Source: Escherichia phage vB_EcoM_VR25
Direction: 5' to 3' (one strand)
Length of the DNA stretch: 64,000 nt
Sequence record: NC_028925.1
Below are positions 26,935-36,574 of the stretch, piece by piece. The notes beneath the pieces are model-generated. The model was not told the origin of the DNA, did no database searches, and saw nothing but the letters and a program-made list of their open reading frames with translations. The translations under genes and the position numbers were made by a program. Position 1 is the stretch's first letter, and each line of letters starts with the position of its first letter.

Positions 26935-27216
26935 TTATTTTGTGGAAGCAGCCGAGATATATTTTTCAAGACGCTGTTTCATCAGCGAGCCGTTCTTAGC
27001 GATTTCTTCCGGTTTATCGCACATACGCAATAGAGCTTCAAGCTTAGTGATATCAGATGTCCGCTCAAATTTGCGAGTATCTACCTTACTAGCAAGTTCG
27101 GAAATACGCGCTAACAGACTTTCGGCTTCTACCAAAGCTGTGCCCAGCTTAGTTGCAAATGCGTCAGTAGCTTCATTAAGAGTGGTCACGGTCAAAAATT
27201 CATTATAGGTTTTCAT
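26935..27216 (-). CDS. Internal-protein-like protein with divergent CTS, 93 aa
   Basis: Starts [10 protein letters not shown]...; ATG start; 3-prime to gene e as ipIII is in T4. Confidence 0.55.
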
Positions 27217-27697
27217 ATACTTTCCAAGTTCCTGTTTTAAATGTTGAGATTACACGTTTCGCTCGATTAGGTGTTTGTTTGTACCATTTGGATTGAGCCA
27301 GGTTAACAGCAGCTTCGTCCCAACGTTTCTGTTGAAGCAACCGAAGGGAGTTAGTAAACCCAGCAACGCCGGCTTCACCCATTTGGAAGACCATATTAAT
27401 CAGGGCACAGCGACGAACTTCGTCAAGACTATCATACACTGGTTTTAATTTAGCATTACGCATAACACTCGCACGTGCTTTTTCCACTGAACGGTTAAAC
27501 AAGGTTTCAGCTTCAACCTGGGTAATCCTACCGTTGCAGACGCGACCCATGAGCTTGTCGAGCTCGGCACGAGCAACATCTTTCGATGGGTTCTTAGTTA
27601 TCAGTTGCCCGATACCGATGGTCCAATATCCTTCGGTATCTTTATACAAATCCAACTTACAACCTTCATCTATGCGTAACATTTCGAATATATTCAT
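27203..27697 (-). CDS. e: Lysozyme (endolysin) gp e
   Basis: 164 aa, ATG start; [12 protein letters not shown]...[13 protein letters not shown]... very similar to T4 lysozyme. Confidence 0.95.
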
Positions 27698-27726: not shown

Positions 27727-28185
27727 TCCGAAAATTTGAGTCAAAACCTTGTACATCGATTTACCCATTACGTATTGCCATTGACTCGGTTTAATCAGAG
27801 CGAAAGCATCAAACTCTGGGACCGAACTACCATCCGGGAAGGTATGATATGCGGAGCATTTACTATGTCTGAATTGCTCATGCTCGACCGGGACCGTGTA
27901 CAAAAACAGGTGAAGGTTTTTGTTATCTGAATAACGGAACTCGCCTAGGTCTTTTAAGAATGCCGGGTCATACCGGGTAAAGCCTGTTTCTTCTTCACAT
28001 TCACGCATAGCTGCTTCAATCGGGGATTCACCGGCTTCAACATGACCCTTAGGGATATCCCATTTATGCGCAGGCATACCCGGTTTGCGAGAACCAGTCA
28101 CACGACCCATGAATAACTCTTTATCTTCAGTCATGAAAATAATGCCAGCAGATAATTCTTTCACCACGTTTTTCTTACTCATCAT
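27724..28185 (-). CDS. nudE: Nudix hydrolase NudE
   Basis: Nudix box GHVEAGESPIEAAMRECEEETGF; first ATG at 28185 gives about 153 aa (T4 NudE about 151 aa); track ORF extends upstream. Confidence 0.85.
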   Translation of the reverse strand: MMSKKNVVKELSAGIIFMTEDKELFMGRVTGSRKPGMPAHKWDIPKGHVEAGESPIEAAMRECEEETGFTRYDPAFLKDLGEFRYSDNKNLHLFLYTVPVEHEQFRHSKCSAYHTFPDGSSVPEFDAFALIKPSQWQYVMGKSMYKVLTQIFG

Positions 28186-28411
28186 CACGTTCCCAAGATT
28201 TTTTAAAGATTTCAGCCATAATAATTTCAATACGTGTTTCTGTTGATGGTGATTCACTATCAGAAGTTTGAACTCTGTAATCGGAAATTGGTCGGAACAT
28301 ATCCAAGTCACTTTCCAAATCTTCTTTTATTTTCTCTTCTGATGTTCCAGTATCATAGGAATACAGATAAGAATCACATGACTCAGATTTAATATAAATT
28401 GCAATACTCAT
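28175..28411 (-). CDS. Hypothetical acidic protein, 78 aa
   Basis: Track ORF; Ser/Asp/Glu-rich. Confidence 0.45.
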   Translation of the reverse strand: MSIAIYIKSESCDSYLYSYDTGTSEEKIKEDLESDLDMFRPISDYRVQTSDSESPSTETRIEIIMAEIFKKSWERDDE

Positions 28412-28995
28412 TTACGGCATTCCTCAATAAAAGAATTTAATGTATTTTTCTTAGCGATATCGTCGTATACCTTTTTAACTTTAGAAATACGAAAAGGTAC
28501 TTCAATAGTCATAGTCCATAAAAATGATGCAATAAGTCCAACAGCAGCAGAAGAAATGCACGCGCCCATTACAGCCACGGGGGCTTCATTTTTACCTGTC
28601 AAGAAAAACAACAGGATTGGTAAAAATAAGATTCCAGACCACGCATAAAACCTGGAACAAATTAACTTATCAAATTCATCTTTCCAGGTACGAAATCCAT
28701 ATTTCTTGCTATAAGAAATTAATGGGTCGGGTGTCTGTTCTTTGAGTGGTTCTGGTTGCCAGCCATTTACGATATAGCCCATTCTGAACTCCTTAATTAA
28801 AAGCTCTTTCATATTATAGTTGCAACCGGACCAATCTACCGTACTAGCTGCAATTCCTTCATCACCATCATCAAGATTCCGCCAGGACTTTTTAATAATC
28901 ATATTCTCACCACTTGGGATAATAATTCCAGCATTTTCTGACCTACGGATGAAGTTTGCATCAATGCCCATACACCCGGGTTCATAAAGGGCCAT
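28408..28995 (-). CDS. Membrane protein, 195 aa, C-terminal FIEECRK motif
   Basis: ATG start; two hydrophobic helices near residues 110-165; C-terminal ...NSFIEECRK resembles the FIKEC family at 32.8-34.1 kb. Confidence 0.5.
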   Translation of the reverse strand: MALYEPGCMGIDANFIRRSENAGIIIPSGENMIIKKSWRNLDDGDEGIAASTVDWSGCNYNMKELLIKEFRMGYIVNGWQPEPLKEQTPDPLISYSKKYGFRTWKDEFDKLICSRFYAWSGILFLPILLFFLTGKNEAPVAVMGACISSAAVGLIASFLWTMTIEVPFRISKVKKVYDDIAKKNTLNSFIEECRK

Positions 28996-29684
28996 TACCA
29001 GCCCTCCATAGGGAATTCCAGATATACTTGAGCGTTAACGCGGATTTCATTTGTAATCTTTTTAACACGGTCGGTATTACGAGACACACGACCAAACCAG
29101 CGCCAACCGTTACCAACTGTTTTCGTTCCAGTGTGCCAGGTCTGCCAGTTGAATTCACACAACGTGCGGTCAGGAGCTTCTTGAACTAAAAGTTCACCTG
29201 CCTTGATTTTTTCCAGAACTTCCTGGTGCCACCGGCGATAGATAAGTTCGCCATCAGGAATCTGACTGAATTCTGAAGTTCCCAGAGCAAAATTAGTAGG
29301 GCAAACAGAAGCGTTAACCAGACCCAGGATGTGTTCAGAATGGTAACGAGGGTTATCATAATCAGGTTGTCCTGCTGTAATAAAATGTTGTCCTGCTGGA
29401 ATATCTGGACGTGGTACATCATCATGGTGGAACCCTGGAATAGCAGGATACCAGCCAGGCATTAACATGTGGACACGGGAATCAAATACAATATCAGGGC
29501 CACATTGCCAATCTTCAGGCAGGTTTTCAATAAAGCTACGAGTAATAGGACCACCGTGTTTATGAGCAAAATAAGCATCGCAATTAAAGAACATAGGCTC
29601 ATTTTTGATTTGGTCATTACTGATATCTTGAGCAAATTGGCCAACTTCACGCATTTTACTATTAAAAGTTTTTGAGCTATTCAT
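28995..29684 (-). CDS. Possible Fe(II)/2-oxoglutarate-dependent oxygenase, 229 aa
   Basis: ATG start; candidate facial triad HHD (in PGFHHDDVP) and a distal His in WHTG about 100 residues later, followed by RVS (possible RxS); motif reading only. Confidence 0.35.
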   Translation of the reverse strand: MNSSKTFNSKMREVGQFAQDISNDQIKNEPMFFNCDAYFAHKHGGPITRSFIENLPEDWQCGPDIVFDSRVHMLMPGWYPAIPGFHHDDVPRPDIPAGQHFITAGQPDYDNPRYHSEHILGLVNASVCPTNFALGTSEFSQIPDGELIYRRWHQEVLEKIKAGELLVQEAPDRTLCEFNWQTWHTGTKTVGNGWRWFGRVSRNTDRVKKITNEIRVNAQVYLEFPMEGW

Positions 29685-29743: not shown

Positions 29744-30703
29744 TTATTTTGAAAAAGGTTTAATCAAATGTTGGTTAGCCTTGAAACGTTTAACATAGTC
29801 TTCGCGACCCAGGGTGTTGTACATATTAACCACTTCCTGGTAATGTTCCCAGGCATACTCACGGAACCATCCAGAAGTAATGGAGGTACAGACTTTTTCT
29901 AGTGCAATATGGAAGCTCACGGATGGAGATATATTGAACTCATTAGGAACCTGCGAACGCTCCAGAGCAAGTACACATGCTTCTTCATAAACCCCTGCCA
30001 GTTTAATAACATCAGGAAGTGCTTCAAATTTTTCACGTGAGGTCATGACTTCTGAATCATCCTTCATATAGAACTTATATGCAGGCTTATCAGCAAGCGC
30101 CACGGCCTCGTGGATGGAGTCATGGTCAAGGGTATAGATTGTATCATTAAAGAAAGTTTTCTTGCCCACGTCTAGTTTAGGGTGACTATATGACAGTGTT
30201 TCTGTCTGACGTTGTAACATAATTTTCTGCAGTTCATCATTAAGAACAACACCCTTATTACGAAGGTAATTAATATGGCTCATGGTCTTCAGGAAGAATG
30301 GATTGTTCTTCAGGTAACGATGAGACAATTTAATTGCCAGACAAATATCAGGGGTCGCCCAATAAAAACCAGATAGACGGTCTTTCTGAATATTTGCCTT
30401 CGCATATTTGAGCAGACGATAACTGGAGGTAAAATCTTCCTCTTGTAGCTCATCAGTCAACTCACGAACACTTGTCAGGGCGCGGACGATATATGCTTCA
30501 AAATAGGTTTCTTTACCGTTGTGCATACACTTAAAAGCTTGCACATCTGGGTTATCCACATGAACATGCTGCCCCATCATCTGGGTTTTAAAGCTGTTCC
30601 AGGAACCCTGGTCAGCGATAAAATCCCAATCAGAGTTTTCAATTTTCTTACTTTCAATCAGACCGGCGTTATGTAACGCGCGAGAACCAATAACTAACAT
30701 CAT
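29744..30703 (-). CDS. Hypothetical protein, 319 aa, weak NTase-like N-terminal motif
   Basis: ATG start; N-terminal VIGSRALHNAGLIESKKIENSDWDF (GS ... DxD with a longer-than-usual spacer); family not recognised. Confidence 0.5.
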   Translation of the reverse strand: MMLVIGSRALHNAGLIESKKIENSDWDFIADQGSWNSFKTQMMGQHVHVDNPDVQAFKCMHNGKETYFEAYIVRALTSVRELTDELQEEDFTSSYRLLKYAKANIQKDRLSGFYWATPDICLAIKLSHRYLKNNPFFLKTMSHINYLRNKGVVLNDELQKIMLQRQTETLSYSHPKLDVGKKTFFNDTIYTLDHDSIHEAVALADKPAYKFYMKDDSEVMTSREKFEALPDVIKLAGVYEEACVLALERSQVPNEFNISPSVSFHIALEKVCTSITSGWFREYAWEHYQEVVNMYNTLGREDYVKRFKANQHLIKPFSK

Positions 30704-30724: not shown

Positions 30725-30961
30725 TTAAATGTCCCAGCGGGCGCTATCATATTCATCCCATAGAGCTTCATGGGAGTTACAAACGATAGGAGCAATGACT
30801 CCGTTAATATCTTCGTTGTAAGGGCAGATAGTACAAAATGCATCTTCGAAACGAACATTGTAATCAGACTTCTTATACGCGATGTCAAAAATCTTTTTAA
30901 ACTTTTCACGAGTAATGGTTTTAGCAACCACTTCAGTACCAATACTTTCGTAATAAATCAT
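30725..30961 (-). CDS. Hypothetical Cys-containing protein, 78 aa
   Basis: Track ORF; preferred over the overlapping low-complexity alternative frame 30700..30942. Confidence 0.4.
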   Translation of the reverse strand: MIYYESIGTEVVAKTITREKFKKIFDIAYKKSDYNVRFEDAFCTICPYNEDINGVIAPIVCNSHEALWDEYDSARWDI

Positions 30962-30971
30962 GGTTATCTCC

Positions 30972-31172
30972 TCAGATAGGACCGTAAAGGTATGTCCAAC
31001 GTTTAACGAAAGAAACTACTTCTTCCAAGGTATCGCAAACCTCTGTAGTGCCCGGAACGCCATCGCCACTGATGGTTACTTTAATGCCATCTGAAACTTC
31101 CTGGAGATTAACCTCCAGTTGGTTGGCTTTGGCTTCGTTCAGAACTTTGATTAATTCGTTTGCGATAGACAT
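30972..31172 (-). CDS. Hypothetical acidic protein, 66 aa
   Basis: Track ORF. Confidence 0.4.
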   Translation of the reverse strand: MSIANELIKVLNEAKANQLEVNLQEVSDGIKVTISGDGVPGTTEVCDTLEEVVSFVKRWTYLYGPI

Positions 31173-31236
31173 TTTTATTCTCCTGTTCTGATAACGTGAT
31201 TGTCATCAGTTGATAAGAGAATAGTAACATGGTTTT

Positions 31237-31581
31237 CTAGAGTTGTATACCACTTCTGCAATATTCTAAAAATAATTTATTGTTGTCTACTGTATCCCAC
31301 CGGCGCCAAGATGAATTCCAGACCAAAGCATTATCACCACAATCGTTAAGCTTGAAATGGTCGTAATACATAGCTATACGCTTGGTCTCGTCAGCGGAGA
31401 ATCCTAATATAGACTCGCCATGAGTATGGTACATATGGTGATGCATGGAGAGGTCGCATTTATAAAACGTTTCACGCTTACCGCGGACGAACAAGAATGC
31501 TTGTCCATCCATATAAAATTCTTTATCTGTTTTTAAAAGATATTTGAATACTGAATCTCTGTGCATAGGTCCTCCTATCAC
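31237..31581 (-). CDS. Hypothetical His-rich protein, about 109-114 aa
   Basis: Track ORF; contains HHHMYHTHGE. Confidence 0.4.
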   Translation of the reverse strand: MIGGPMHRDSVFKYLLKTDKEFYMDGQAFLFVRGKRETFYKCDLSMHHHMYHTHGESILGFSADETKRIAMYYDHFKLNDCGDNALVWNSSWRRWDTVDNNKLFLEYCRSGIQL

Positions 31582-31596
31582 ATCCTTGTGATAATT

Positions 31597-31821
31597 TTAG
31601 CAGCTGCTCGGGTACCAGATTTTACCATCCGGGTGAGCAACAAAGGTGCGTCCAGCTTCTTCGCCATAACAAGAGCTATTCAACCAGTCTTCAAGACGAA
31701 CTTCACCATCATAATCGTCGAGCTCAATACCGAAATCTTGAGCAGAAGCCATATCTTTAACTTTCTTATACAACGCAGCCAGTTCAAGAGCTGCTTTTTC
31801 TAATTCATTAATATCAGACAT
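31597..31821 (-). CDS. Small acidic protein, 74 aa, C-terminal ...WYPSSC (family member 1)
   Basis: ATG start; ends in Cys; shares C-terminal W-x-x-SS-Cys pattern with the four ORFs upstream. Confidence 0.5.
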   Translation of the reverse strand: MSDINELEKAALELAALYKKVKDMASAQDFGIELDDYDGEVRLEDWLNSSCYGEEAGRTFVAHPDGKIWYPSSC

Positions 31822-31830
31822 TTTTATTCC

Positions 31831-32058
31831 TTAGCAAGACATAGAGGAGTTAAACCAGAAACCTTTACCTTCTGGGATACCATAATCACCGTGAATCCAG
31901 TCATATTTTTTATATTCTGGGCTGCCCGCAGGAATATATCGCTGAAGACTGTCAGCATATACATGAAAGTATTCACCAGTTTTATCGGCCAGCTGTTCAC
32001 CTTCACAGATTAGTGCACGGATTTGGTCTTCAATTTCTTTAACAGTTTTAGTAGTCAT
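31831..32058 (-). CDS. Small acidic protein, 75 aa, C-terminal ...GFWFNSSMSC (family member 2)
   Basis: ATG start; stop TAA then GGAATAAAA and the next ATG. Confidence 0.5.
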   Translation of the reverse strand: MTTKTVKEIEDQIRALICEGEQLADKTGEYFHVYADSLQRYIPAGSPEYKKYDWIHGDYGIPEGKGFWFNSSMSC

Positions 32059-32066
32059 TTATTTCC

Positions 32067-32264
32067 TTAGCATTCGTAAGAGGAGGACACCCAAGAGGTA
32101 CCGCTAATAGTAATGCATCCATTATAAAGCGTGATATGCCTGTCTAAGTCACGAACACCGCTAATATAGATATCAGCTTCTTCACGTTCTTCTTTACAAA
32201 TCTGGATAACATTTTCAATAGCCGCTTTAGCGGTACGGATTGCACAATCTAATTCACGAGACAT
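32067..32264 (-). CDS. Small acidic protein, 65 aa, C-terminal ...SWVSSSYEC (family member 3)
   Basis: ATG start; stop TAA then GGAAATAA and the next ATG. Confidence 0.5.
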   Translation of the reverse strand: MSRELDCAIRTAKAAIENVIQICKEEREEADIYISGVRDLDRHITLYNGCITISGTSWVSSSYEC

Positions 32265-32273
32265 AATATTTCC

Positions 32274-32555
32274 TTAACATTCAGCAGAAGAGGACACCCA
32301 ACCACCTTCTGCAAGGTCTGTGGTGTAGTCATGTTGGTTAACAATAGCATATTGGGCTTCACCGTAGTTTTCCCAATGTTCAAGGTCAGCTTTCAGGGCG
32401 CCAGGAGAATAATAGTCACCGCCCATACCGCGAGCAGGGTATATATTAAAATGAGTCTCATATTTGTCTGCAATTTCCTCAGCGCGACGAATAGCTTCAT
32501 GGATTTCTTTTACTGCGGCCAGAAGCTCTGGTTGGTTATGGTTATCATTCATCAT
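32274..32555 (-). CDS. Small acidic protein, about 93 aa, C-terminal ...GGWVSSSAEC (family member 4)
   Basis: ATG at 32555 (MMNDNHNQ...) just after the upstream stop; track ORF extends further at an alternative start. Confidence 0.5.
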   Translation of the reverse strand: MMNDNHNQPELLAAVKEIHEAIRRAEEIADKYETHFNIYPARGMGGDYYSPGALKADLEHWENYGEAQYAIVNQHDYTTDLAEGGWVSSSAEC

Positions 32556-32556
32556 A

Positions 32557-32847
32557 TTAACACATCTCAGAAGAGGAGACCCAAGCACCAACGGTAACAA
32601 CCCCATTTTCAACTTTTCCACCGTTGGCTTCAATATGATGGGTAAACCATTCAGAGCATTCATAACCGACTGGGTGGTATGTACGACCTGTGCCGTAATC
32701 GCCGGTGCTGAATTCAATGCCATATTCATCAGCGATTTCTTCACAATGTGTTTCAATTTCAGAGGTCTTATTTAGAAGAGAATAGATAGCTTTTTCTGCA
32801 GATTTCTCATCATAATACTTAGGGATAGCGATTTCAATTTTATTCAT
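32557..32847 (-). CDS. Small acidic protein, 96 aa, C-terminal ...GAWVSSSEMC (family member 5)
   Basis: ATG start; same C-terminal motif. Confidence 0.5.
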   Translation of the reverse strand: MNKIEIAIPKYYDEKSAEKAIYSLLNKTSEIETHCEEIADEYGIEFSTGDYGTGRTYHPVGYECSEWFTHHIEANGGKVENGVVTVGAWVSSSEMC

Positions 32848-33290
32848 GATTTACATTCCTTAATAAAGGTTTCAAGGTCATTACGTTTTGTTTTGTTCAG
32901 GAACTTATTATACTCAGCCATTGCCAAAGCGTATCTCTTACGGATGGGAGCATTCAAGGCGTTTGTGTAACAGATATCATACACAACCGGGATAAAATAG
33001 GCCACAACAGCCGGAGCAATTATCATAAAGAAGCCCATCTCAATAGGCATGACTCCCTCGATTGCAGCCATAACCGTTGTCATTACCAGGCCAACCAGGC
33101 CACCGAGCATAGCGGTGGCAATCCCTAATAATAAATTGGCACCAATATCATATTCAGCCAATTGATAAACATGTGATGCAAGACTAGGCCGTTCCATTAC
33201 GAACCTCCTTGATAAATTCTTCTGCACATTTAATTTTGTGCTCTTTTTGTAGGGAAACGCATTTTTGTTCCCACTCTTTAACTCGACCAC
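32844..33290 (-). CDS. Membrane protein, up to 148 aa, C-terminal ...ETFIKECKS
   Basis: Two hydrophobic helices; real start probably the internal Met near 33197 (MERPSLASH...). Confidence 0.45.
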   Translation of the reverse strand: MVELKSGNKNAFPYKKSTKLNVQKNLSRRFVMERPSLASHVYQLAEYDIGANLLLGIATAMLGGLVGLVMTTVMAAIEGVMPIEMGFFMIIAPAVVAYFIPVVYDICYTNALNAPIRKRYALAMAEYNKFLNKTKRNDLETFIKECKS

Positions 33291-33567
33291 GATATCCTTT
33301 ATTCATATGATTTTGATGCCACACATTTATCAATATCATACTCAGGACTGTAATAAAAGGAGCTGCAATTATTAGTGCCCAGGCGACTCCAACACTAATG
33401 ATATTCATATCCCCACAAAGCACCATCATTATAACCCCAACGATGCACATGGACAGAGCTCCAAATGGAGGCATAAGGTCTTTATCAATCTTGTCTGCGT
33501 ACACAAATTTTTCTGGTTTACCTGGCAGATATAACGTTCGCATTTTGAACCCCTTTAGCGTATTCAC
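33184..33567 (-). CDS. Membrane protein, up to 127 aa, C-terminal ...EEFIKEVRNGTA
   Basis: Two hydrophobic helices; start may be the internal Met MRTLYLPGKPEK. Confidence 0.45.
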   Translation of the reverse strand: MNTLKGFKMRTLYLPGKPEKFVYADKIDKDLMPPFGALSMCIVGVIMMVLCGDMNIISVGVAWALIIAAPFITVLSMILINVWHQNHMNKGYRGRVKEWEQKCVSLQKEHKIKCAEEFIKEVRNGTA

Positions 33568-34072
33568 GGCATTCTTTAATAAAACGATTAAGCTTACGCT
33601 GCTGTTTACGACTTTCTAATGTATATTCGTCGGCCAAAATAGTAAGCTCATCTTTATCGTAATTTTTAATATCAGAGTAAGATGGTCTACGGTCAACCAT
33701 TCCAAATACATCGCCATTTTCTAGCGCTACATAACATACTAAATGGTAATCATCATCTGCTATATTAAGAAGCACACAATCATCGCTCTCGTTTAACGCA
33801 TACACAGAATAGCGTAATCCAGCGAATTCCACTCGTTGAATACCCAGATTTACATCAATAATTTCCAAGGCATCTGCGAAAGAAAGGTCTTCAGCTAAAG
33901 CAAAAATAAAAGGCAATTTTGTAGTATCGCCACGGCTAGTTGTTCTTCTTAAGAAATCATTGGAATAACCCAAGTCACCGCGGATTCTGTAAAGAACTGT
34001 ATTAGTTTCAGTAGCAAGGCCACTACCGCCAAACCAGTCTACATTTGATATAAGGTCAGTATATAAGCTCAT
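33518..34072 (-). CDS. Hypothetical protein, about 184 aa, C-terminal ...NRFIKECREYAKG...
   Basis: ATG at 34072 (MSLYTDLISN...) preceded by GGGAGAGGAG SD just after a hairpin; acidic, no hydrophobic helix. Confidence 0.45.
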   Translation of the reverse strand: MSLYTDLISNVDWFGGSGLATETNTVLYRIRGDLGYSNDFLRRTTSRGDTTKLPFIFALAEDLSFADALEIIDVNLGIQRVEFAGLRYSVYALNESDDCVLLNIADDDYHLVCYVALENGDVFGMVDRRPSYSDIKNYDKDELTILADEYTLESRKQQRKLNRFIKECREYAKGVQNANVISAR

Positions 34073-34092
34073 AATTTTCTCCTCTCCCAATT

Positions 34093-34109
34093 AGGGGGCA
34101 AAGCCCCCT
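34093..34109 (-). promoter_or_regulatory. Intercistronic GC hairpin between the PspA-like gene and the next ORF
   Basis: AGGGGGC-AAA-GCCCCCT between the stop at 34115 and the SD of the ORF starting at 34072; U-run is on the plus-strand side. Confidence 0.4.
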
Positions 34110-34114
34110 TTATC

Positions 34115-34708
34115 TTACTTAAGTGAATTGATGTATTCTTCAATGTCAGCGGATGTGGTATCCACACCAACCTGTGGACCTTTGAAGGTTTCAACACGCA
34201 TCAGAGTGTCTTCAATATCAATCTTAGTCAATGCAGCGATTTCAACAACATCATCTGCGGTTGCAATACCTAGGGCAGACACCTTACGGGTTTCGCGGAT
34301 GTATTCCAGTTTAACAGCTAGTTCCTGACGAGAGTCATCCAGCTCTTTAACTTTCAATTTAATTTCATTACGCATTTCAACATAATCATCTGCCTTCTTA
34401 CGAAGTTGTTTAGCAGTGCGACGATACAGGAGACCCAGTTTAGCATGGACCTGGACATCAGCACCATCAGCAATCAGTTTACGAATTTCACGCTCTTTTG
34501 AAGCGGCGAGCTGGTCTTTTTCATTCGCTAACTCGCGGATGCGTTTTTCTTCATTAACAGACTTAACGTGGGCAGTCTGGAGCTCAGTAATCTTGTCAAT
34601 CAGGGTAGAAGCCGCTTTAGTATATTGGTCTTCAATAGACAGGTTTTGTGCCATTGCAGTACCCAGTTTGGAGCGGATGAATTCAACAAGTTTCTTTAAA
34701 GTATTCAT
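34115..34708 (-). CDS. PspA/IM30-like coiled-coil protein, 197 aa (tentative)
   Basis: ATG start; long heptad-like helical sequence of PspA-like length; assignment from composition, not a verified match. Confidence 0.35.
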
Positions 34709-35171: not shown

Positions 35172-35615
35172 TTAAATTTCAAATTCTTTGCGGAAGTTGG
35201 AAGCATAAGATTGAACAGATGCTTTGTTGAATCCAAACTCACGCACAATCATATCAATAACAGCTCTGCGAGCAGCACCATTAGACATATTAACAGTTTT
35301 GAACATATCATAGCATAAATCTTTGTTGCTCATACCGGAGCGTTTAGGTGCCTTACGCTCAGCTTTTGGTTCAGCTTTAGGAGTAGGTTTAACTTCTGGT
35401 TTAACCTGCCCATCATTCAGACCTTTAAAAATTTTACCTGCCAGAGTTGCCAGTTTAGCAGCTTCACCACGAGTGATACCAAATACTGCCGGGTTAAATG
35501 AAATACCTTCAGCTGTCAGACGTTTGAAGAACATACGCGCTGCGGATTGCGCTTCAGCTTCAGAAGAGTTGTTTAATGCCAGTTTAACGTACTTAACCAG
35601 TTTTGAAGTTTTCAT
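35172..35615 (-). CDS. Hypothetical protein, 147 aa, C-terminal ...VQSYASNFRKEFEI
   Basis: Track ORF; C-terminal 35 residues paralogous to ORF 36068..36493. Confidence 0.5.
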   Translation of the reverse strand: MKTSKLVKYVKLALNNSSEAEAQSAARMFFKRLTAEGISFNPAVFGITRGEAAKLATLAGKIFKGLNDGQVKPEVKPTPKAEPKAERKAPKRSGMSNKDLCYDMFKTVNMSNGAARRAVIDMIVREFGFNKASVQSYASNFRKEFEI

Positions 35616-36067: not shown

Positions 36068-36493
36068 TTATTTTTGAGCTTTGCGGAAGTTGGAAGCATA
36101 AGACTGAACAACAGTCTTTTTGATATCATGGGTGGTAACCAGAACATCAATCAGAGCGCGGCGTGCTGCATTATCATTCATATCAATTTCTGCAAATGCC
36201 TGGAAGCAAATGTCACGGGCGTTACCAGATTTGGACTGGATTTTTTCTTCTTTAACTTCTTCAATTGGGAATTCAATCATTTCAGCTTGGATTAATTCAA
36301 TGATGGATTCTTTTGACTGTTTGGTGTTTACCTTCAGTTCAGAATTAAGGGACTTAGCGATGGCAACAATCTGGGTTGAAGTCAGATGGATAAGTGCATC
36401 TTCACGAATACAGATTTCACATACTTCGTCGGCAACCATTTTGTTAGTGATGCGGGTAACAGAGAATGCAGAGGTCAGGGTCAGAAAGTTCAT
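36068..36493 (-). CDS. Hypothetical protein, about 141 aa, C-terminal ...VQSYASNFRKAQK
   Basis: Internal Met (MNFLTLTSAF...) consistent with the promoter cassette at 36544-36574; paralogous C-terminus to 35172..35615. Confidence 0.45.
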   Translation of the reverse strand: MNFLTLTSAFSVTRITNKMVADEVCEICIREDALIHLTSTQIVAIAKSLNSELKVNTKQSKESIIELIQAEMIEFPIEEVKEEKIQSKSGNARDICFQAFAEIDMNDNAARRALIDVLVTTHDIKKTVVQSYASNFRKAQK

Positions 36494-36543
36494 TTTATTT
36501 CTCCAAAGTTTTGTTTGATTCAGTGTGTAACTCAGTATGGAAT

Positions 36544-36574
36544 CATTATGCACCCGGTCAATTCGGATGTACAC
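36544..36574 (-). promoter_or_regulatory. Early promoter cassette
   Basis: Minus strand GTGTAC-18 nt-CATAAT then leader GATTCCATACTGAGTTACACACTGAATC. Confidence 0.5.

Follow-up and report, generated by a model that had tools for sequence, protein, structure and literature searches.

A widespread family of small acidic phage proteins with a W-x-S-S-S-x-x-C tail and its linkage to a predicted MenT/AbiEii-like nucleotidyltransferase

Five consecutive small genes of Escherichia phage vB_EcoM_VR25 encode acidic proteins with closely similar C-termini in which Cys is the final residue in all five cases, which raises the question of what might recognise such an end. The genes lie within a 64,000-nucleotide stretch of sequence record NC_028925.1 (here termed the window), DNA of a T4-like phage of the SP18/VR20/JS98 group whose best DNA matches are the Escherichia phages TH15 (93%) and VR20 (92%) and Shigella phage SP18 (Gaprivervirus, 90%); all of the genes discussed are on the minus strand. 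As judged by sequence comparison, the five proteins are members of a widespread, undescribed protein family, and the small-protein genes form a near-obligate two-gene phage module with the gene of a predicted nucleotidyltransferase (NTase). The shared tail is probably the element that is recognised by this enzyme.

The five-gene array and its protein family

The five tandem open reading frames (ORFs) were found at exactly the coordinates, and with exactly the C-termini, that had been given to them in an initial annotation made from the window alone. They encode proteins of 65-96 amino acids (aa) with a pI of 4.27-4.97 and a net charge of -4 to -11. In order of transcription, and followed by the enzyme gene, they are:

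32557..32847, minus strand: family copy 5, 96 aa; tail GAWVSSSEMC, class A (W[VILM]SSS.[ML]C); phrog_899, E 1.9e-22
32274..32555, minus strand: family copy 4, 93 aa from the ATG; tail GGWVSSSAEC, class D; phrog_899, E 5.3e-20
32067..32264, minus strand: family copy 3, 65 aa, the shortest paralogue; tail SWVSSSYEC; phrog_4882, E 2.7e-36
31831..32058, minus strand: family copy 2, 75 aa; tail GFWFNSSMSC, class C; phrog_899, E 7.9e-15
31597..31821, minus strand: family copy 1, 74 aa; short tail KIWYPSSC, class B; phrog_899, E 6e-10
29744..30703, minus strand: partner NTase, 319 aa; predicted Pol-beta fold; Pfam DUF7277 and DUF7275; phrog_2141

Both of the PHROGs matched by the small proteins (phrog_899 by four copies, phrog_4882 by copy 3) are unannotated. 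The array genes are tightly coupled, with spacers of 1-10 nt and with TAA-GGA providing stop codon and Shine-Dalgarno sequence together: the start of copy 5 overlaps the stop of the e.3-like gene before it (ATGA), the ATG of copy 4 is 1 nt past the copy 5 stop, and the copy 3 junction reads TAAGGAAAT-N-ATG. The junction DNA contains a 35-nt unit in four copies, which runs from the tail codons and the stop codon through a Shine-Dalgarno sequence, TAAGGA, to an ATG about 9 nt further; the similarity reported between the junctions is real, but it is modest, at 63-86% identity. On the 3' side of copy 1 (31583-31596, minus strand), a short hairpin, ATCACA-AGGA-TGTGAT, is followed by the AGGAGG Shine-Dalgarno sequence of the next ORF (31237-31566), and it is at this hairpin that the TAAGGA-type coupling within the array stops.

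The proteins themselves align along their full length, sharing an EE-x-AD-x-Y N-terminal helix, a conserved Tyr and an upstream Trp; even copy 3 aligns with the remaining copies, and it has orthologues in 15 or more loci. In copy 4 the terminal residue, at position 93, is the sole Cys, and copy 1 contains a second, internal copy of the motif (DWLNSSCYGE; WLNSSC...WYPSSC). Given this whole-length alignment, and given that 212 of 232 tail-bearing ORFs fall in one superfamily with a conserved fold, the earlier description of the bodies as divergent or hypervariable was overstated, and the idea of a tag grafted onto unrelated folds was mostly rejected on the same count. Two six-member clusters (140-144 aa) match the family only at the tail. 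Proteins of about 140 and 144 aa were found inside Stephanstirmvirinae-like arrays (L005:2659-3525 and its equivalents in L039-L041, L062 and L078, where L numbers denote the loci compared in the following section), with the tails ..AWCSSSMSC and ..GWISSSICW, so that one of them finishes in Cys-Trp rather than in Cys.

When 1.84 billion representative proteins were searched exhaustively with a profile, 71 clusters at <50% identity were obtained, nearly all of which align through the final residue. A terminal Cys is present in 66 of the 71 representatives, and in 40 it is the sole Cys; the loose tail pattern is found in 69, and the exact W-x-S-S-S-x-x-C at the C-terminal end in 51, of which 39 have Gly at position -9. 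The median pI of the representatives is 4.4. An alignment of 64 diverse members showed W, S, S and C to be invariant, the tail motif is kept at <30% protein identity in unrelated phages, and some members have internal repeats of it (e.g. WESSSEGWESSSEGWVSSSSQC). With one copy as the query, tblastn located the family in at least 398 phage records, the hosts of which range from Escherichia to Aeromonas, and the model phage RB69 carries it as RB69ORF134c and RB69ORF139c. An AlphaFold2 (AF2) model of copy 5 (pLDDT 87.3, pTM 0.72) predicts a helix at residues 14-42, a small beta-sheet and then the tail. Scans of the small proteins against Pfam (E<=1), NCBIfam and PADLOC gave no match, PHROGs returned unannotated families only, and a PDB profile search found nothing; that the motif might prove to be a described domain, an objection foreseen in the initial annotation, was not borne out by these profile and structure searches.

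The 35-nt unit at the four junctions and the double use of TAA-GGA are what would be expected if the tail were a feature of the DNA or RNA, namely a recombination scar, the outcome of gene conversion within the tandem array, or an RNA element by which the Shine-Dalgarno sequence of the following gene is sequestered. This explanation has next to no probability when it is set against 81 distinct W.SSS..C tail DNAs, in which TCT, TCC, TCA, TCG, AGT and AGC are all found at every Ser position (327 TCN versus 151 AGY overall), Cys is encoded by TGC in 50 and by TGT in 31, and stop codons and downstream spacers vary. Copy 1 itself encodes both Ser residues of its tail as AGC AGC, and persistence of the motif below 30% protein identity in unrelated phages is equally at odds with a scar. 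With the six Ser codons and the two Cys codons all in use at the conserved positions, selection on the tail acts at the amino-acid level, and the tail is not a DNA scar; the second foreseen objection, that homologues would show frame-shifted or untranslated ends, likewise falls away, as their tails are translated and codon-diverse.

Linkage of the family to a nucleotidyltransferase gene

In Mosigvirus p000v, Aeromonas phiAS4 and Klebsiella phi1_175008 (Stephanstirmvirinae), the family genes are followed closely by a gene for a protein of about 310 aa. Its equivalent in the window, which the initial annotation had missed, is the gene at 29744-30703, 0.9 kb downstream of the array; the four enzymes are 47-75% identical, and all have Pfam domains DUF7277 and DUF7275. 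Enzyme-bearing loci (80 IMG/VR and 2 genome loci fetched with the enzyme, plus 4 reference loci, 86 in all) were scanned with a hidden Markov model (HMM) of the small-protein family and with the tail pattern. The family HMM was matched in 78 of the 86, always on the same strand as the enzyme gene and upstream of it, in one to six copies. L048 and L075 have tail proteins too, their genes stopping 4 nt short of that of the NTase; the loci L069, L083 and L087 end too early upstream to show an array, and only L028 is truly without a copy. Essentially all complete loci thus have tail-bearing genes upstream of the enzyme gene. Across 82 loci, 1327 ORFs lie on the strand of the enzyme gene in the 3.5 kb upstream of it, and 218 of them have the loose tail pattern, as against 3 of 2698 same-strand ORFs elsewhere and none of 4238 ORFs on the opposite strand; the recurrence of the tail upstream of the enzyme is not due to chance.

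The linkage also holds in the reverse direction, in that all five distant family representatives that were chosen independently of the enzyme have a DUF7277/7275 gene within 1.5 kb downstream. Unbiased clustering of all ORFs of the 82 loci identified the small-protein family and the NTase as the only families common to T4-like and non-T4-like loci. The pair is seen in Mosigvirus, Stephanstirmvirinae, phages of Acinetobacter (Twarogvirinae) and Pseudomonas (Otagovirus) and phages of >350 kb, and in Tulanevirus the linkage is kept at a different genomic position, beside nrdD. The enzyme is present in 730 of 50,697 phage records. The small proteins and the NTase constitute a near-obligate two-gene phage module.

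Several precursor-like genes beside one enzyme, together with the invariance of W and C, also call to mind ribosomally synthesised and post-translationally modified peptides (RiPPs), in which case an N-terminal leader would precede a Ser/Cys core that becomes dehydrated or cyclised (lanthionine, AviCys or a Trp-Cys crosslink). The geometry of AviCys is matched by a Ser at -3 together with a terminal Cys, which provides a lead only. This reading is nonetheless very improbable: the clustering revealed no LanB/LanM/LanD, radical-SAM, YcaO or protease/exporter genes conserved nearby, the small proteins are predicted to be confidently folded globular domains (pLDDT 87) rather than disordered leaders, and we know of no role of the NTase fold in RiPP chemistry. 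The family shows neither the co-encoded dehydratase/cyclase (LanB/C, LanM) or LanD decarboxylase nor the disordered leader that mark lanthipeptide and AviCys-type precursors.

Phage T4 has neither component, as determined by an HMM and motif scan of its whole genome, and the initial annotation was right in naming no T4 counterpart of the five proteins. The T4 genes nrdC.1-nrdC.3 were considered as a hidden copy of the module on account of their similar sizes and were rejected, as they match neither the HMM nor the motif. Compared with T4, the window has the block from array to enzyme inserted between e.3 and e.2. The single locus without small proteins can be compared with a close relative: in L028 (L028:4615-5573) the whole array is deleted relative to its sister L029, both being T4-like genomes from IMG/VR. 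Of the class-B gene, the last five codons (..YTSSC, stop) are left, and it is exactly there that homology between the two resumes; a seven-tRNA cluster now abuts an intact NTase gene, 92% identical to that of L029. A functional swap of array for tRNA genes was considered and rejected; the deletion joined a syntenic tRNA cluster to the end of the array.

That the NTase can exist alone, as it does in L028, would fit small proteins that are functionally independent effectors (anti-defence decoys, for instance, or inhibitors of a host enzyme that work through a metal or a thiol) with a tail that targets a host protein, the NTase being merely a co-regulated neighbour. Small, acidic, multi-copy genes of early regions resemble those of known phage anti-defence proteins, and the thiol and carboxylate of the terminal Cys could chelate the metal of a host enzyme. 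Co-regulation, however, leaves unexplained both the near-obligate same-strand upstream linkage across unrelated phage families and genomic positions and the joint absence from T4, and we regard independent effectors as distinctly improbable.

Four paralogue tail classes, A-D, are present in both T4-like and unrelated lineages, with class A tails in 31 T4-like and 5 other loci, class C tails in 15 T4-like and 6 other loci, and a class B cluster of 28 members in 28 loci. At least two copies are retained in 64 of 81 loci, and the remaining 17 have one.

The partner enzyme and the possible role of the tail

The 319-aa protein has invariant residues (49 sequences compared) at G6 S7, D25-x-D27, E69, K125, H128, K139, R165, H194 D195, H198, C243 and C272, the Lys, Arg, His and Cys of which sit in its helical domain. 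The closest folds to its AF2 model (pLDDT 92, pTM 0.86) were, with their scores, MenT1 (10.3), ANT(2'') (8.8), TglT/MenT3 (8.7), MenT4 (8.0), the TM1012 NTase (7.7), LnuA (7.3) and viral poly(A) polymerase (6.9). The core of MenT-type NTases is marked by the N-terminal motifs I (hG[GS]) and II ([DE]x[DE]) (PMC10435456), and the phage enzyme has a Pol-beta NTase core with both. The combination of this fold with the invariant motifs points to an NTase of the Pol-beta superfamily that, as modelled, looks catalytically intact; its predicted fold comes nearest to those of the tRNA-modifying toxins of the MenT/AbiEii group and of hydroxyl-directed adenylyltransferases. None of its 2060 homologues bears a functional name. 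By sequence it is not a DUF1814 protein, since Pfam at E<=1 gives DUF7275 and DUF7277 only; PADLOC and NCBIfam scans of the enzyme yielded nothing, and a PDB profile search detected no MenT. Members of DUF1814 are further marked by C-terminal motifs III and IV, which are unique to that family; they extend tRNA 3' ends with nucleotides and are toxic in the absence of the upstream gene's product, which neutralises them.

With a probability that we put at about one half, the five proteins supply the small subunits of a conserved module of two components, the other being the MenT/AbiEii-like NTase, and the tail docks on the enzyme as a substrate or pseudosubstrate. The near-obligate linkage to one NTase gene lends strong, if indirect, support to shared recognition of the tail. 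The initial annotation had proposed such recognition in general terms, and that proposal stands in spirit: the linkage data supply the NTase as a concrete candidate for the recogniser, and we infer the recognition itself. We likewise infer a physical interaction, entry of the tail into the active site, chemistry at Ser or Cys and a biological purpose. The small protein would be a folded acidic domain in which a long N-terminal helix lies against a small beta-sheet; the invariant Trp would anchor the last strand, from which the short Ser-rich tail would project with the free carboxylate of its Cys. The tail would then occupy the acceptor site of the enzyme, which in MenT receives a tRNA 3'-OH and in ANT/Lnu a drug hydroxyl, and a Ser hydroxyl would serve as the acceptor (for O-nucleotidylylation or phosphorylation) or the tail as a pseudosubstrate. 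The ancient paralogue classes, with a common docking tail on different bodies, would give one enzyme several partners with non-redundant roles, and the purpose may be to take over the host or to counter its defences through tRNA-related targets.

Several observations weigh against this proposal. The NTase remains intact in L028 after loss of the array, which means that the enzyme can persist without partners, and three unrelated ORFs (0.9 kb) part the array from the enzyme gene in the window. O-nucleotidylylation does not account for the invariance of the terminal Cys. Placement of the NTase outside DUF1814 by sequence means that the analogy with MenT chemistry is one of fold only, and the Ser/Thr two residues before the DxD, which is the auto-phosphoacceptor position in MenT, is apparently unconserved on simple inspection of the alignment.

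The nearest folds of the NTase being the toxins MenT1, MenT3 and MenT4, the small proteins could instead be classical antitoxin-like inhibitors: a MenT-like tRNA-modifying toxin, serving host shut-off or an abortive logic, would be sequestered, or its electropositive cleft blocked, by unmodified acidic proteins that are possibly mimics of the tRNA acceptor stem. The arrangement of a small acidic protein upstream and an NTase downstream, tightly coupled in translation, is in keeping with this, as is the strong acidity of the family (median pI 4.4), and MenA1, a small inhibitor encoded upstream, sets a precedent. One inhibitor would suffice, yet 2-6 divergent paralogues are retained in most loci and their classes are conserved across lineages; a toxin that is co-expressed with a stoichiometric inhibitor brings no gain to a lytic phage; L028 has an intact NTase and no copy at all; and the small proteins have no fold similarity to the known MenA/AbiEi antitoxins. 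The occurrence of classes A-D in unrelated lineages, the multiple copies in 64 of 81 loci and the state of L028 together favour several tail-sharing partners over a single antitoxin, and inhibition of this kind seems to us unlikely.

Ancient, maintained paralogue classes that have one tail in common and are served by a single enzyme could also be specificity adaptors, the tail docking on the NTase and the distinct bodies directing it to different tRNAs or host proteins. The tRNA links of the NTase, which are circumstantial, would suit such a role: tRNA genes lie within 6 kb of it in 9 of 53 non-T4-like loci, and actinophage DUF7275 homologues are placed inside tRNA gene clusters. A single copy in 17 of 81 loci is difficult to reconcile with adaptors, bodies that are small (65-100 aa) and acidic are a poor fit for tRNA binding, and to our knowledge exchangeable specificity subunits have no precedent among NTases of this fold, all of which leaves adaptors quite improbable. 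The actinophage proteins, Gordonia phage ClubL gene 16 (L093) and Arthrobacter phage Atuin gene 147 (L094), are DUF7275-only homologues with 28-33% identity; they are located within or beside the tRNA clusters and have no tail-bearing small proteins upstream.

A calcineurin-like phosphoesterase gene lies 0.2-3.8 kb from the NTase gene in 15 loci from two unrelated lineages and could be a third, optional component; its presence is compatible with reversible modification of Ser, though it is not universal. The enzyme is of the lambda type (PF00149; L005:128-865, L066:7695-8438, and L039-L043, L046, L047, L050, L054, L057, L058, L061 and L080); its gene precedes the array in Stephanstirmvirinae and lies downstream in jumbo phages. 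A more far-reaching reading, which we hold as a tentative possibility, is that of a protein-tagging system, in which the MenT-fold NTase would add nucleotides or phosphoryl groups to Ser or Cys of the W-x-SSS-x-x-Cys-COOH tag; the conjugates might, for example, mimic tRNA 3' ends and act as decoys for tRNA-targeting defence toxins, and the linked metallophosphoesterase would reverse the mark in some lineages.

Two further genes accompany the NTase. Directly downstream of it in the window is a gene (28995-29684, minus strand) for a 229-aa, RB69ORF132c-like protein (phrog_1843) that accompanies the NTase in 19 T4-like loci and in no other lineage and that has no Pfam or PDB relatives. An acidic 78-aa ORF between nudE and e.2 (28175-28411, minus strand) has homologues in 24 of the 82 NTase loci, including six jumbo-phage loci in which it is about 2 kb downstream of the NTase gene.

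Neighbouring genes and comparison with known systems

The other genes of the region, the e homologues having been assigned by sequence comparison with T4, are:

34115-34708, minus strand: homologue of T4 e.6, 197 aa
33518-34090, minus strand: homologue of T4 e.5
33184-33567, minus strand: homologue of T4 e.4
32844-33290, minus strand: homologue of T4 e.3
30725..31566, minus strand: three small ORFs between the array and the enzyme gene, lineage-specific and with the tail motif absent
31237-31566, minus strand: first of these, 109 aa; phrog_9796; present in 5 of 82 loci
30972-31172, minus strand: second, 66 aa; phrog_14244; present in 0 of 82 loci
30725-30961, minus strand: third, 78 aa; phrog_3723; present in 10 of 82 loci
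28408-28995, minus strand: homologue of T4 e.2

The three intervening ORFs are outside the conserved module, though they are transcribed in the same direction. The lysozyme gene e is at 27203-27697 and is followed by nudE; the region from nudE to the tRNA genes contains about 20 ORFs, fewer than the 25 or so that had been counted. The FIKEC C-termini recorded in the initial annotation are present (..TFIKECKS, ..EEFIKEVRNGTA, ..RFIKECREYAK.. and ..SFIEECRK), and the same C-terminal F(I/V)x(E/D)C(R/K) motif is found in T4, in e.3 (..EFVIDCRKIK), in e.5 (..EKFVKECREYVK..) and in a 51-aa ORF after e.2 (..NNFITECRKLK). It was considered whether the motif is a by-product of an embedded Shine-Dalgarno sequence (AAGGA), which was rejected as the sole cause, T4 e.3 having V-I-D-C and e.5 V-K-E-C with other codons. 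The suggested link of the array to the FIKEC trio and the 'PspA-like' gene did not survive, since these genes co-occur with the module in T4-like loci only and are absent from all of its non-T4-like loci; the position of the FIKEC and e.6 genes beside the module reflects synteny and not function. Nor was the PspA-like label upheld for the 197-aa e.6 homologue, which gave no PspA_IM30 match in Pfam at E<=1 and no PDB sequence match at E<=10. T4 e.2 (102 aa; L002:1973-2461) appears to correspond to the N-terminal part of the 195-aa e.2 homologue of the window, and the 51-aa T4 ORF just downstream bears the missing C-terminus (..FITECRKLK), such that T4 e.2 looks split. Between e.6 and the tRNA genes there are two paralogues, at 35172-35615 (minus strand, 147 aa) and 36068-36574 (minus strand, 168 aa), which share a C-terminal module, ..AARRA(V/L)ID..V..(A/T)(S/V)VQSYASNFRK... 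The 24-nt gap between the e.6- and e.5-like genes contains a perfect GC-rich palindromic hairpin at 34093-34109 (AGGGGGCAAAGCCCCCT), a candidate terminator, attenuator or RNA-stability element.

Literature searches on DUF7275, DUF7277, the PHROG identifiers, the RB69 ORF names and descriptive terms returned nothing relevant, and neither family is named in any paper or database covered by the literature and database searches. The module is common, yet both of its components are without a name, a paper or a solved structure, and an invariant terminal-Cys tail is here tied to an NTase whose closest relatives by predicted fold are bacterial abortive-infection and toxin-antitoxin toxins that act on tRNA ends. 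Were the tail a substrate, the module would represent a novel type of protein nucleotidylylation in viruses; were the tail protein an inhibitor or adaptor, it would show lytic phages taming and deploying a MenT-like enzyme. In either case, a block of genes that have been called 'hypothetical', in the hyperplastic region from e to the tRNA genes of T4-like phages, gains a functional handle.

T4 internal proteins, which are injected, have an N-terminal capsid-targeting sequence (MKTYQEF-type) that is cleaved by the gp21 protease. The family does not belong with them: an N-terminus of this type is absent from the five proteins and from 64 relatives, the N-termini of which are diverse, and the suggestion that the proteins are possibly injected finds no support; a true MKTYQEFITEAK.. 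protein was found elsewhere in related loci.

Among the closest known systems is MenAT1 of M. tuberculosis, which pairs a DUF1814 NTase with the 68-aa MenA1. MenT-fold enzymes transfer nucleotides to a 3'-OH, and helical MenA1, encoded upstream of menT1, binds the active-site face of MenT1, which in the bound state transfers a phosphoryl group to the hydroxyl of an active-site Thr (PMC10435456, PMC11375011); a partner at the active-site face of the NTase and chemistry at a Ser/Thr hydroxyl are the points of likeness. As with MenA1, the phage small proteins are encoded directly upstream of, and co-oriented with, an NTase of predicted MenT fold (78 of 86 loci, and five of five in the reverse test). 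They have no sequence or fold similarity to MenA1, however, with its long central and short C-terminal helices; the phage NTase is not recognised by DUF1814, AbiEii or PADLOC models; the module is borne by lytic phages, with its partners in arrays of one to six ancient paralogues; and the W-x-SSS-x-x-Cys C-terminus is unknown in MenA proteins.

In AbiE, MenAT3 and MenAT4 the partners are AbiEi-type (COG5340) winged helix-turn-helix proteins of about 200 aa, in contrast to the acidic alpha/beta proteins of 65-100 aa described here, which have no transcription-factor domain and no sequence relationship to them. In the type VII HEPN/MNT systems, the NTase MntA is reported to poly-AMPylate its partner HepT, encoded next door (PMC7641770), so that a Pol-beta NTase covalently nucleotidylylates a hydroxyl of the adjacent gene's protein; HepT/MntA is the closest precedent for the proposed modification of the tail. 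The MNT enzymes are minimal (about 130 aa) and their partner is a HEPN RNase modified on Tyr, whereas in the phage module there are multiple partners and the putative acceptor is a Ser-rich C-terminal tail; the five proteins have no HEPN match in Pfam at E<=1, no HEPN fold match and no Rx4-6H motif. ANT(2'') and LnuA differ in acting on small molecules, without co-encoded partners and without the DUF7275 helical domain. Overall, the phage module follows the same logic as MenAT1, AbiE and HEPN/MNT, that of an NTase with a small partner encoded upstream, and differs from them in the fold of the partner, its invariant tail, its multi-copy arrays and its residence in lytic phages.

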